Positions 460 to 55,658 of a DNA stretch of 64,000 nt are shown piece by piece. The DNA is from Eledone cirrhosa. Taxonomy: Eukaryota. The notes under the pieces were generated by a model. That model was not told the DNA's origin, did not search any database, and saw only the letters and a program-made list of their open reading frames with translations. The first letter of the stretch is position 1. Each line of letters begins with the position of its first letter. The position numbers were made by a program, and so were the translations under genes. The stretch spans positions 105,462,001 to 105,526,000 of the forward strand of contig OZ024745.1 in NCBI GenBank assembly GCA_964016885.1, given 5' to 3'.

Positions 460-610
460 GTGGTAGAACACTGGAAGGTAATATCCGTAGTGGTAAAGCA
501 CTCCATGGGACGAGTTAGGTAGAAGTAGTAACACAACAGTTAGTTCACCATACCGAGAACAATTGTTTCACCTTAGCGGATCATCAGCTCGTAATGGGCA
601 TGGTTATACG
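460..610 (-). mobile_element. Penelope-like pLTR stub between (TA)n tracts
   Basis: Contains a hammerhead (548-597) and an ACTC..GAGTGC hairpin (498-515, minus strand). Confidence 0.7.
548..597 (-). ncRNA. Type I minimal hammerhead ribozyme motif
   Basis: Minus strand: ccattacgag CTGATGA tccgctaaggt GAAA CAATTG TT ctcggtatgg; stem I cgag/ctcg, palindromic stem III. Confidence 0.8.
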
Positions 611-884
611 TATATATATATAATATATATATATTAATATATATATATATATATATACATAATATATATATATATATATATATATATATATATATATATA
701 TATATATATATATATATATATATATATATATATATATATATATATATATATATTAATATATATATATATACATATATATATACATATATATATACATATA
801 TATACATATATATATACATATATATACTTATATATATATACATATGTATATAGATATATATATATATAGATAGATAAATATACA
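611..884. repeat. (AT)n microsatellite
   Basis: Direct inspection. Confidence 0.97.
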
Positions 885-914
885 CGGGTGTGTATGATTG
901 TGTATAGAAGATTA

Positions 915-1252
915 TATTAATAAGAGGAATTCCTACTTTGTCTGATTTACTCGTTTTATTTACAATCCTTTAAAATTTATAATGGTATTATAATGAAATA
1001 GTATGATAGAATATTAAATGTTAAGTGTTAATTGAACAAGTACTTTCATGCTTTCACAATCTTCAGGTTCATAATGTGTGGTGACAGTAAAGTTTGCAAT
1101 TTTCAACTGTTGAAAGCATGAAAGTACTTGTTCAATTAACACTTAACATTTAATATTCTATCATACTATTTCATTATAATACCATTATAAATTTTAAAGG
1201 ATTGTAAATAAAACGAGTAAATCAGACAAAGTTGGAATTCCTCTTATTAATA
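915..1252. mobile_element. Foldback (about 140-bp arms) Penelope-like pLTR insertion
   Basis: 915-1057 is the reverse complement of about 1112-1252; hammerhead in the left arm; (TA)n flanks. Confidence 0.75.
1033..1071 (-). ncRNA. Type I minimal hammerhead ribozyme motif
   Basis: Minus strand: tgaac CTGAAGA ttgtgaaagcat GAAA GTAC TT gttca; stem I tgaac/gttca; stem II weak. Confidence 0.7.
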
Positions 1253-1647
1253 TACATATATATATACATATATGTATATGTATATATATATATATATATA
1301 TATATATATATATATATATATATATATATATATATATATATATATATATATATATACATATATATACATACATATACATATGTATATATATGTATATATA
1401 TATGTATATATATATATATATATAGATACATATATATAAATATATATACATATATATATACATATATATATATATATATATATATATATATATATATAGA
1501 TCCATATATTATATATACACACACACATATATATACATATATATACATATATATATATATATATATATATATATATACATAATATATATATATATATATA
1601 TATATATATATATATATATATATATATATATATATATATATATATAT
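1253..1647. repeat. (AT)n compound microsatellite
   Basis: Direct inspection. Confidence 0.97.
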
Positions 1648-1705
1648 AGGAAAAAATATGACCCCGACGGCAGAGCTCAAGCCGTTTCGACGGCTATTTC
1701 TGGAC
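1648..1705. mobile_element. Family B pLTR-like element, short arm only
   Basis: Matches the short arms at 3883, 6463, 34527 and 52408. Confidence 0.7.
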
Positions 1706-1740
1706 ATATATATATATATATTCCTATATATATATATAAT

Positions 1741-1945
1741 ATAGAGGTGGCTACTACAGGACTAGAACTGTTTCATTCGGGACAAATCTTCAGGGAGAAA
1801 TCATGGGCTTTCTTGACAATTTCTCCCGATTAAACAATTCTAGTCCTGTAGAAGCCATTTCTATATCAAATATTTATACTCTGCTATATATTGAGTACCA
1901 TACTTACTGTAGTTACCCCCGATTGAACCCAGGATAAACGTATAC
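1741..1945 (+). mobile_element. Inverted-arm pLTR-like element with degenerate hammerhead core
   Basis: 1741-1780 is the reverse complement of about 1825-1864; CTGAAGA..GAAA on the minus strand but no stem I; ACTC..GAGTAC at 1878-1898; related 3' end at 40957-41030. Confidence 0.6.
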
Positions 1946-2157
1946 ATATATGGGCTGAACCAGTAGTAAGCAATAACTATTCGTGGACTTCTTTGAAATG
2001 GTCATCGCTCTCTCTCTCTCTCTCTCTCTCTCTCTCTCTCAGTATATATATATATATATATATATATATATATATATATATATATATATATATGCATATA
2101 TAGACATATACATGCATACATAGATATAGATATATATACTACATATATATGCATATA

Positions 2158-51986: not shown

Positions 51987-52220
51987 ATATATAAACAACT
52001 ATCTGGTTGTGGAACCAACCAAGCAACCAGAGATTTATAAATTTGTAAATTTATAAATATATAATAAATTGAAGTGAAAGCAACTGGTGCGTGTGTTTCT
52101 TATTGGCAACATGACCCTCCCAAAGTATAACAATATCGGTTTCAACACACGATTTCAGATAAAGAATCTTGCTAAACAAATTCAGAAACGATATATATAT
52201 ATATATATATATATATATAT

Positions 52221-52408
52221 AACAAAGGAATTGTGGTAAGGAACCAGATGGACCATAACGCACCAGAGTACTCAATACTTAGGGTAGTAGAGTGGGAAAT
52301 AGGAAAAAGTATGACCCCGACGGCAGAGCTAAAGCCGTTTCGACGGCTATTTCTGGAAATAGCCGTCGAAACGGCTTGAGCTCTGCCGTCGGGGTCATAC
52401 TTTTTCCT
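52221..52408 (-). mobile_element. Family B pLTR-like foldback
   Basis: As 6266-6463; hairpin at 52268-52293. Confidence 0.75.
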
Positions 52409-53137
52409 ATATATATATATATATATATATATATATATAAAGAGAGAGAGAGAGAGAGAGAGAAGAGAGAGAGAGAGAGATAGAGAGAGAGAGAGAGATA
52501 GATAGAGAGAGAGAGAGAGAGAGAGAAAGAGAGAGAGAGAGAGAGAGAGAGAGAGAGAGAGAGAGAGAGAGAGAGAGAGAGAGAGAGAGTGAGAGAGAGA
52601 GAGAGAGAGAGATGCAAACTGTTTAAATGTTTAAATATACATTATCAAAGCAAGCAAATTGATGTAATAACAAACAGAAATTATTTAAGAGAAAATGATA
52701 TAATGATGAAAAATATATCTAAGAACTATAATATATCAATAGTTAAAAGATGAGATAATTTGGTTGTGTATTTCTGTTGATGCAGCATAAACATTTTCAG
52801 CTATACATAAGGATTAATGCATATGTACAGTTTCAAGAGAGGTGAGTCAACGAAAATGTGTCTCGGTTCCATTTCCGTGTTTGAAAATTTTAAATATGAA
52901 ACTATATGTATTTTAGAATATTATCTAGTCAATGCCATGAAGTAAAACTTAATCAATAATCTTCTAAACAAGTGAACAATTAAAAGTGTCATATATACAT
53001 ATTTTCTATTGTGCTGTATCTACGTGGTAGGGTTTCATATATATAACATACTGAGTTAAACAAACGCGATTAACTGAAATTATGTAAACTAATAGACAAA
53101 ACTTCTCCCCACAAAAAAGGCAAGGGAGATAACCCAA

Positions 53138-53323
53138 ATAATTGTTTCTACTTTTGGCACAAGGCCAGGCCAGCAATTACCCAGTGTATTACTGGTCCTT
53201 TATTTTATCGACCCGGTAAGGATGAAAGACAAAGTTAACCTCGACGGGATTTGAACTCAGACCGTAAAGGGACGTAACTATGTTGGAAAGCATGGCGTCC
53301 GACCCTCTACCGATACTGCCAAT
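53138..53323 (-). mobile_element. MetaSINE-like SINE
   Basis: Family match. Confidence 0.85.
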
Positions 53324-53799
53324 TCAACGCAAATAATAAAAGCCAATCGAAACTTCCTCGTCACCCTCCGAGACTATGTCTCCTCCATCCTGTCCACTGG
53401 GACCACGACCCGAACTAACCCTTAAATAGTGAGTAGTAAATGTAGATCTCTCTCTCTCTCTCTCTCTCTCTCTCTCTCTCTCTCTCTCTCTCTCTCTCTC
53501 TCTCTCTCTCTGTTTCCCTCCGTCTCTCCCCCTATCTCTCACACACACATACACAGAATCTATATGGACTATACAAATTAAATAGAATTTAGTGTTTATG
53601 GTCAACTGGTAAAGAAACTGACATCTTTCTGTTTTAGTAGACTAACTAAGCGATGCGTATCATACTTAGTTGATACGACTCAGAGTCTTATATTTTGTAC
53701 GGATTTTACTGCGTCAATATGTATATATATGAACGAAAGGATCCCCTCTCATCACACTCCGTAAATAAACCGTAACTCATACCACCCCTAACTACAGAG

Positions 53800-54912
53800 G
53801 TCAAACAAGTTCACCCAGAACCCTGAATGATGGCTTTCCTCAATGTTCCATTCTCGCACCAACGCTTTTAACATCTACATGAGTCATATGCCCAGGGCAA
53901 CTACGAAGAAATTTACATATGCAGATTACCCTGTCATGGTTACTCAATCTACTGACTTTGACAAACTCAACATTACACTCAGAAGATCTGGAGAAGATGG
54001 GGTACTATTGCTCCTACTGGCGCTTTCGGCTCAACCCAAGCAAGACCACTGTGAGAGCCTTCCATTTCAGCACCAGACAATCTAGGACAGAACTCAAGTT
54101 CTCCATCTGTGATAGACCTGTCAAGAATGAATCATGCTCCAAATATATTGGGGTAACATTGAATTGCAGCCTGACCTACCGAGAACACCTAAAGAGGATT
54201 GCTGGAAAGATCAAGATCAGGATAAATACCATCGGCAAGTCAGAAGGAAACAGCTGGAGCTCTGATGCATACACACTCCAAACTGCGTACTTAGCATTTG
54301 CATACTCAGTTGTAGATTACTATTCACCAGTCTAAGCTAGGAGCTGCCATGCCAAACAACACGGCAATGAGAAAATATCTAACACGCTGAAATCTACACC
54401 TATGTACTCACTGGCTGCCTACATTTTCTCATATAGCTCCTTCTCACTTGCGGGACAGGAGATGATCCGCGAAACAGCACTTCTTACCAAATCTAAGCCC
54501 GAACTGCCATCCATGAAGAACTGGAAAACTTTTCCAGCATGCGTGTGAAATCACGCAAAACATTCTGGGAATCCATCAAGACGCTTCAAGACAATAATTT
54601 TTGTCTGAAGAAAGAATGGCGAACATATGGAATGAGTCACCTGATATTTGCCACCCAGGACCTCATATCTAAACCAGGCTGCTTTGACCTTCCTCGAAAG
54701 CAATAAGTATCCCTCAATCGGATCTGCATAACACACACTAGGTCAGCCCATCATCTTCAGTGGTGGAATATGAAAGACAGCTCAGCATATGACTATGGGG
54801 ACTCTGACCAGACAGTGGTGAATGCTGTTCAGGATTGCCCCCTTGACGTTTTCCCGGCGGCATGGAGGCAATCGGTAATACTACAAATGATGCCTTAGTC
54901 TGTCTCAACAAT
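53800..54912 (+). mobile_element. Decayed 5'-truncated LINE (Ingi/Vingi-like, I group)
   Basis: FNIYMS, KFTYAD, RLNPSKT, KYIGVTL, W.SDA.TL..AYLAFAYSVVDY.SPV, degenerate C-terminal knuckle; frameshifts. Confidence 0.75.
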
Positions 54913-54947
54913 CTCTCTCTCTCTGTATATATATATAAATATATATA

Positions 54948-55482
54948 TAAGTATGTATGTATGTATACGTACATACATATATGTATACAGACGTACAGTA
55001 GTATGTATATATATATATATATATATATACATGCACACATATATACATGCACGTATCGGTTTACTGAACATTTATTATAATGCTCGGTTTGTTTGTTTGT
55101 AAACAAACAAACAGCCCGAATTACGCTGTACAGTGTTTAGGCAACCACGTCACCTTTTTGTTCAACACTGACACAGAAACGATGTACTAGTTTCAAGCTC
55201 ATTAGCTATCGTCAGCATCGTCAGTGACGGGGTTGCCTAAACACTGTACGGCGTAATTCGGGCTGTTTGTTTGTTTACAAACAAACAAACCGAGCATTAT
55301 AATAAATGTTCGGTAAACCGATACGTGCATGTAAATATGTGTGCATGTATGTATATATATATATACATACTACTGTACGTCTGTATACATATATGTATGT
55401 ACGTATACATACATACATACTTACATTTAAGTAAGTGCCGTACTAAGAGTGAGAAATGAAATTTCGTTTCATTCTATTCCAA
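54948..55482 (+). mobile_element. Foldback element (about 200-bp arms) with a hammerhead in the spacer
   Basis: 54948-55153 is the reverse complement of 55224-55423; 3' hairpin ACTTAC..GTAAGTGC. Confidence 0.8.
55179..55221 (-). ncRNA. Type I minimal hammerhead ribozyme motif
   Basis: Minus strand: acgatg CTGACGA tagct aatg agctt GAAA CTAG TA catcgt. Confidence 0.88.
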
Positions 55483-55658
55483 TATATATATATATATATA
55501 TATATATATATATATATATATATATATATATATATATATATATATATATATAAGTATTGAAATTTCCATTGGAAACAGAAAAGGTCATAGAAATGAAGAG
55601 TGCTCTATGTAAGTATCAGAGCAAAATTTAATGTATAAAAATCAATACAATATAATTA

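Follow-up and report, generated by a model that had tools for sequence, protein, structure and literature searches.

Penelope-like elements (PLEs) of the Hydra clade, which belong to the sister group of telomerase reverse transcriptase (RT), carry a small hairpin twice within their RNA's 5′ untranslated region (UTR), and their insertions end just 5′ of one copy or the other. The finding concerns a stretch of 64,000 nts from Eledone cirrhosa (GenBank assembly GCA_964016885.1, contig OZ024745.1, forward-strand positions 105,462,001 to 105,526,000; the window), in which a first-pass annotation had pointed to a recurrent ACTC-Nx-GAGTRC hairpin, and its relatives in the host genome and in metagenomes. 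To judge from sequence comparison, each hairpin probably anchors an RT on the RNA just 3′ of the site at which copying starts. A bolder proposal, put forward tentatively, is programmed twin priming, in which two telomerase-like RTs would sit on the tandem hairpins, both strands of a (TA)n target would act as primers, and the enzyme would stutter at initiation.

Tandem hairpins in the 5′ UTR of one clade

The hairpin had been taken for a 3′-terminal feature common to unrelated families, and neither part of that description stands. In full-length copies the sequence continues beyond the apparent 3′ end into a second hairpin (H2) and then the start codon. The motif first noticed (H1) is the first of two tandem 5′ UTR hairpins, lying between the hammerhead and the start codon, and only H1 is carried into long insertions, ends being situated 5′ of each hairpin copy. 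The 11 main sites in the window reduce to six families, and all of those with an identified open reading frame (ORF), A, B, D and N, are Hydra-type. The motif is a duplicated 5′ UTR element of one clade.

A search of the 3.0-Gb host genome (G000) for the tandem pattern gives 1,331 matches, as against 136 for a reversed control. A metagenomic sample (80 of 466 related loci) provided 51 ORF starts with enough upstream DNA, duplicates being kept, and their 5′ UTRs have two hairpins in 31 cases, one in 17 and none in 3. This metagenomic UTR, 10,195 nts in all, contains 79 hairpins in sense and 3 in antisense orientation, compared with 26 in 166,806 nts of coding DNA. H1 starts 42–67 nts past the GAAA of the hammerhead, H2 starts 55–83 nts past H1, and H2 ends 13–47 nts before the ATG. 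Both hairpins are found in host families as well as in metagenomic 5′ UTRs and the published Hydra-1_Ajap consensus. Among the entries compared from the supplement to PMC8557442, the coral and sea cucumber consensus ends of Hydra-2_Amil, Hydra-1_Ajap and Hydra-2_Ajap have the motif, and the sea-louse Hydra-1_Crog consensus has a GCCC..GGGCAC variant.

By their proteins, the motif-bearing families with an ORF are Hydra-clade PLEs, the clade with a C-terminal endonuclease (EN+) for which the text of Craig et al. (2021, PMC8557442) gives DKT, an RWK-type motif and a CxCX5C linker as marks. Family B (34409) is the pseudo-long terminal repeat (pLTR) of an element whose 799-aa ORF, open in locus L111, specifies an RT and a C-terminal endonuclease; the protein is 33% identical to protein P0002 (E 8e-130) and has DKT, RWI and, by inspection, the CxCX5C linker and a GIY-YIG domain. 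Pfam searches gave no match on the PLE proteins, P0001 included. The predicted model of P0002 (pLDDT 89.9) matches RTs, and its two best PDB matches are telomerase RTs (TERTs; best E 5.6e-9, TM 0.32). The N-terminal motif is RWK in families D and M, RWR in A, N and F, and RWI or RWT in B, and DKT is present in A, B, D and M; among 38 aligned proteins RW[KR] is found in 35, DK[TS] in all 38 and CxCx5-6C in 34. Hydra-type ORF N-termini follow in families A, D, N and M, from which C-termini were not recovered, and in families J (498) and K (1878) no H2 or ORF was found, the one match for each looking like an adjacent insertion. A hammerhead core is present in B, D, N, M and J and absent from A, and an Rfam HH9 match in L244 is below the gathering score. 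The elements are inserted in (TA)n. The family B unit is 3,553 nts, and the clade is 'generally' under 3 kb according to the text of PMC8557442. IMG/VR yielded no relatives.

All 14 strings quoted in the first-pass annotation are where it placed them. ACTC-N6-36-GAGTRC occurs 17 times in the window, as against 2.41±1.74 expected (maximum 8) from 100 local dinucleotide shuffles, and 40 times in 264 kb as against 9.25±2.66 from 20 shuffles. In 464 kb of unselected host DNA, a microsatellite begins 20–79 nts past the motif end at 38 of 79 matches, compared with 6.5% of random positions; these 38 group into 16 clusters, and 17 of the 38 are preceded by a hammerhead-like core, as are 3 of the other 41. 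Genome-wide, the anchored pattern gives 17,712 plus 68,058 overlapping matches, and its control 3,798 plus 760. The distance of 40–65 nts to the microsatellite proposed earlier suits 8 of the 11 main sites (38–60 nts) but not the other three (74, 106 and 109 nts). Similarly, a hammerhead core is 35–120 nts upstream at only 6 of the 11; the four family A sites lack a CTGANGA core.

Hairpin structure and covariation

The consensus opens with RCUC and an inner stem of 1–6 pairs, followed by a loop that varies; the 3′ side has a UN bulge, then GAGY and RCUNU. Three features had escaped the first-pass annotation: the bulge of 2 nts, an inner stem that covaries, and the hairpin's second copy. Hairpins were found with CTC and GAG fixed and the inner stem free, and 52 non-redundant ones out of 89 were used for pairing, with three that are apparently mis-registered kept. 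A MAFFT alignment of 56 hairpins left the 5′ arms unaligned, so pairs were counted by script and not by a covariance model. In the 2-nt-bulge register, inner positions 1–3 are paired in 49/52, 37/52 and 34/48 hairpins, with shuffle means of 38.9, 21.2 and 18.8; none of 5000 shuffles reached the observed counts, in a test that takes no account of relatedness, and other registers give 0–5 of 52 at pair 1. The corresponding values for the 16 host clusters are 14/16, 12/16 and 13/15. For the outer pair, metagenomes have G-C, host H1 mostly has A-U, and L187 has U-A. In metagenomic H1 there is a sense-strand signal, G-U to A-C being 10:0. The earlier suggestion of a conserved cis-acting PLE structure is backed by this covariation, by position and by conservation across the clade.

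Within the same element, H1 closes with A-U and H2 with G-C in host elements L244, L247, L271 and L322, and this difference could help to assign H1 and H2 sites.

Three compensatory variants had been put forward. The one at 55600, GCTC..GAGCAC, is borne out by a second hairpin and a Hydra-type ORF in L206, but the other two are not: at 55419, GTAAGTGC is present in just 4 of 19 long copies, and the ends of short copies fall within the supposed stem; the sequence at 5724 seems to be where two repeats meet, given that 5 other copies diverge halfway along it. The regular-expression matches at 19115 and 22566 are at the start of another repeat, 600–900 nts from the next microsatellite. [A repeat of about 500 nts set in (TA)n, with a GC-rich hairpin at its start, is present at 2144–2642, 19104–19655 and 22542–23135, and is a different family.] A splice-site reading, with ACTCCAG as acceptor and GTAAGT as donor, was rejected as these bases vary across families. 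H1 is not stem III of the hammerhead, which in Hydra elements is often ACTC-n-GAGT, as it is 42–67 nts past the GAAA and coexists with stem III. No Rfam 15 family covers the hairpins: at E≤0.01, 18 loci gave only microsatellite miRNA noise and one hammerhead; among the matches listed for the window (150 of 267) there is only microsatellite noise.

Insertion ends and inverted insertions

Two kinds of end are seen among 220 microsatellite-flanked termini of families A, B, D and E: 85 are at −14 to +2 of H1, 125 at −11 to −3 of H2 and 10 elsewhere. In this count the exact base is blurred by TA homology, the tail served to select some of the loci, and overlapping loci were only partly removed. Since 210 of the 220 are at H1 or H2, the 'tail' of Hydra-clade PLEs runs from immediately ahead of H1 to immediately ahead of H2. 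Among metagenomic same-family termini, 10 of 11 are at −12 to −2 of a hairpin, the 11 having been picked by hand from 36 rows, the rest of which are hammerhead-region matches between families. The first-pass annotation had left the choice between RT and endonuclease open; an arm that ends before H2 does not contain H2, and this favours action of the hairpin on the template RNA.

Inverted insertions nearly always pair one short end with one long end. This is so for 36 of 36 resolved junctions in family B, 6 of 6 in family A and 8 of 9 in family D, 50 of 51 overall, and for 31 of 32 pairs at loci that were not tail-selected (p=8e-9 against 0.5). Where the pair bears an ORF, the short-end arm is the longer in 13 of 15 cases (1.5–3.5 kb), the long-end arm being 37–642 nts. 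As each arm holds sequence absent from the other, neither is a copy of the other. [In L111:2337-5866 a full-length copy starts about 4 nts ahead of H2, with an inverted long-end arm of 78 nts joined to it.]

Dinucleotide runs at family D ends

The family D RNA reads AUCUAUCU ahead of H2. A run of (CT)4–21 intervenes between element and (TA)n at 9 of 25 family D long ends and at none of 13 D short ends, nor is (CT)n met at the long ends of other families (0/62 in B, 0/21 in A, 0/32 in Neptune; p=4e-6 for D versus B). In four D pairs the opposite arm directly adjoins (TA)n with no CT run, so (CT)n is unlikely to be target sequence. We infer that the run reflects template-matched, reiterative copying at initiation, though it may have come from later slippage.

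A proposed twin-priming model and its alternatives

The template would be a read-through RNA that extends past the downstream pLTR into the next 5′ UTR and carries both H1 and H2. Two RTs would bind, one to each hairpin, and the GIY-YIG domain would nick both strands of (TA)n. One RT would prime 5′ of H1 and the second 5′ of H2, the nicked ends pairing with a few U or A bases there, and the two cDNAs would grow and then be joined head to head. The tail would then be the H1-to-H2 distance, and long copies would contain H1 for no other reason than that an enzyme primed at H2 reads across it. With weak pairing at the outset, the enzyme would be able to stutter, adding dinucleotide repeats. Such a mechanism would agree with the internal start at two sites and the extension of both strands described for the element PAc in the parts of PMC11167929 covered here, and with the TERT-like fold of P0002.

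Besides the disregard of relatedness in the shuffle test, several observations weigh against this proposal. One family D pair is long plus long, and 11 of 47 family B junctions are unresolved. In family B, the junction of many short pairs is at a single palindrome of the template about 70 nts upstream of the hammerhead, which fits either annealing of cDNA ends or fold-back. In a Neptune family that has no such motif, at least 7 adjacent pairs, judged by eye, likewise combine a short with a long end; this arrangement may be general and the hairpin signal clade-specific. Strand evidence is mixed, G-U to A-C being 1:7 in H2 and 7:6 in host H1. The minimum-energy fold holds the closing stem at only 6 of the 11 window sites, and this stem may on that account need protein to form. 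(CA)n at family B long ends (6/62 versus 1/47) is not significant, and Hydra-1_Obim, in the published consensus compared, is without a clear hairpin pair.

The main rival to twin priming is a single priming event at H2, with the cDNA then folding back and being copied, and an endonuclease that recognises H1 as DNA and cuts the preceding TA-rich stretch to make the short end. It would accommodate the palindromic junction hot spot of family B and the TA-rich bases before H1 in 20 of 25 cases, and it accords with published statements, PMC11167929 reporting that the Drosophila virilis Penelope tail is required for endonuclease recognition and the text of PMC8557442 attributing the tail to EN-mediated resolution. 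It is nonetheless unlikely: the short-end arm has kilobases that are missing from the long-end arm in 13 of 15 ORF-bearing pairs, one consensus common to H1 and H2 suggests one function, and variable spacers with an offset inner stem are unsuited to a double-stranded site.

Rather less probable is that the hairpins are protein-binding sites for ribonucleoprotein assembly or translational autoregulation, the ends being set by the nearest UA-rich bases or by RNA cleavage. H2 does end 13–62 nts before the start codon and UA-rich bases are ahead of both hairpins, but the offset of the ends to both hairpins is narrow across families while the H1–H2 spacing ranges from 55 to about 100 nts, and few ends (10 of 220) are at other UA-rich positions of these UTRs. 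Self-primed copying from antisense RNA, with the functional fold on the opposite strand, has been proposed for rotifer Penelope, and the text of PMC3846280 argues for self-priming from palindromic junctions. Though the excess of A-C over G-U on the H2 sense strand would suit it, the absence of A-C beside 10 G-U on the metagenomic H1 sense strand, the location of the hammerhead on the same strand as the hairpins and the use of sense RNA as template by a Poseidon element in vitro (reported in PMC11167929) make it very improbable here.

Motif-bearing insertions and other repeats in the window

The family B H1 at 34409–34435 (+) is within the tail of a long arm (34239–34494, +; hammerhead core 34305–34350) whose end is 4–9 nts before the H2 start of full-length copies, and the short inverted arm (34067–34236, −) stops just before H1; in relatives L111, L112 and L244, H2 and then a Hydra-type ORF follow. 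A diverged family B copy has H1 at 31396–31422 (−) and a hammerhead core at 31485–31530. Family A has H1 at 3757–3782 (−; long arm 3708–3839, short arm 3840–3885 on +), 6313–6338 (−), 34585–34610 (+) and 52268–52293 (−; long arm 52219–52357, short arm 52360–52410 on +), with H2 and a Hydra-type ORF in L245 and L271. [Family A (window 3708–3885 and 52219–52410; L271–L273) is the commonest here and keeps both hairpins without a CTGANGA core; near-identical copies of it are found in a 3.54-kb tandem array.] The family N sites are 6131–6156 (+; short inverted arm about 5846–5990 on −) and 46500–46532 (+; hammerhead core 46400–46430, short inverted arm 46171–46285 on −), with H2 and ORF in L322–L326. 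Family D has H1 at 27181–27222 (+) and a hammerhead core at 27075–27111, and between its long end and (TA)n the (CT)n run at 27272–27332 (+) is a candidate RT stutter product. The G-C closing variant of family M is at 55600–55622 (−; hammerhead core 55674–55722). H1-like sequences are at 498–515 (−) in family J, with a hammerhead core at 566–587 and an inner stem shortened in this copy, and at 1878–1898 (+) in family K. Beyond the sites first listed, a further H1 is at 45176–45205 (+) in a 5′-truncated copy, and an H1-like candidate, a single copy in the sample, is at 24084–24109 (−), 86 nts before (TA)n.

For comparison, the family at 20261 and 51113 was correctly said to lack the motif: none is within 300 nts of its ends in the one read-through copy. 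Its inverted pair at 51111–52190 consists of a short arm (51111–51597, −) and a long arm (51648–52190, +). By inspection of translations its protein is Neptune-type, with a CX2-5CxxC linker and a CCHH-type endonuclease, and BLASTP gave no significant match to Hydra proteins (E≥0.3). No common hairpin is evident past the two Neptune ends in the one copy folded. Both ends in this family (L226, window 51648–52190) read AAT/AT, and its tail is within the ORF, like that of PAc. Family G (window 55130–55480; L111:6374-6900; L218; L235) is a short hammerhead-bearing repeat without H1 or H2, often in tandem units of about 420–450 nts with short and long ends of its own, and looks like a retrozyme of another PLE clade.

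Other repeats include a 471-aa open frame at 25288–26703 (−) with an RVT_1 match and C2H2 zinc fingers, a fragment of a long interspersed nuclear element (LINE). An abundant 190-nt repeat resembling short interspersed nuclear elements has more than 15 copies (9221–9870, 30649–30836, 43163–43354, 47341–50391, 53136–53330, 57758–57945 and 61037–61228). A 788-nt direct duplication (98% identity) and a 91-nt tandem array are found at 27561–28910 and 29654–30309.

Relation to known systems and implications

In stringent LINEs a small 3′ stem-loop near the RT start gives recognition and is located in the copied 3′ UTR, whereas H2 is beyond the long end and is not copied by an enzyme starting there. 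The alignment region and boundary helix of telomerase RNA, as treated in PMC4993307, have in common with the present system a related RT and a template that is internal, with a helix next to it; primer alignment is short and reiterative copying possible. The telomerase boundary element, however, is 5′ of the template and halts synthesis, and a boundary role of that type was rejected for the present hairpins, which are 3′ of the ends, long arms reading through H1 and synthesis continuing for kilobases. Twin priming of L1, as described in PMC2837659, likewise has two RTs acting on opposite target strands with one RNA to give inverted arms, but in L1 the second RT starts at an internal annealing site, and a deletion separates the arms; in the present elements each of the two sites has a fixed position and a structure that marks it, and arms frequently overlap. 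For Poseidon PAc, Frangieh et al. (2024, PMC11167929) report two internal RT start sites, one at either limit of the tail, and extension of both target strands, with a predicted dimer. The PAc start is in an AC-rich stem-loop within the ORF, and the parts of that paper covered name no repeated signal, in contrast to the duplicated, clade-conserved, non-coding hairpin 3′ of each end found here. The families here resemble the Hydra clade of PMC8557442 in RW(K/R/I), DKT, the CxCX5C linker, the C-terminal GIY-YIG, the hammerhead (of which family A lacks the core) and (TA)n targets, and differ in tails of about 55–100 nts versus the 30–40 given in the text of that paper.

The Hydra clade, the tail, inverted pLTRs and internal initiation are already known. 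Apparently new, as not found in the literature searched, in the passages covered or in Rfam, are the duplication of the hairpin, the fixed offset at which it stands to both ends, the rule of one short and one long end and the template-matched repeat. No description of the motif was found in the Penelope literature, where subscription papers, Repbase or Dfam notes, figures and supplements may mention one. 'Hairpin' and 'stem-loop' are absent from the main text of PMC8557442, figures being outside a text search, and hairpin and stem terms from the text of PMC3846280 and of bioRxiv 10.64898/2026.07.22.740005; the parts of PMC4209133 covered have no motif description.

The finding bears on how PLEs choose their template and on what causes tails and inverted arms, one element having been studied in vitro. 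It offers a 25-nt RNA signal, two predicted starts per element and a rule of one short and one long end. If the start signal is not itself in the region that is copied, this would account for renewed movement being confined to copies in tandem or with read-through, and twin priming, if true, would explain the tail, the inversion of pLTRs and the requirement for copies in tandem. RT-based insertion tools could also profit from a portable hairpin that sets an internal start. Template-matched stutter would tie the priming of PLEs both to the addition of repeats by telomerase and to the growth of microsatellites and, if true, would make PLEs active builders of the microsatellites that surround them.

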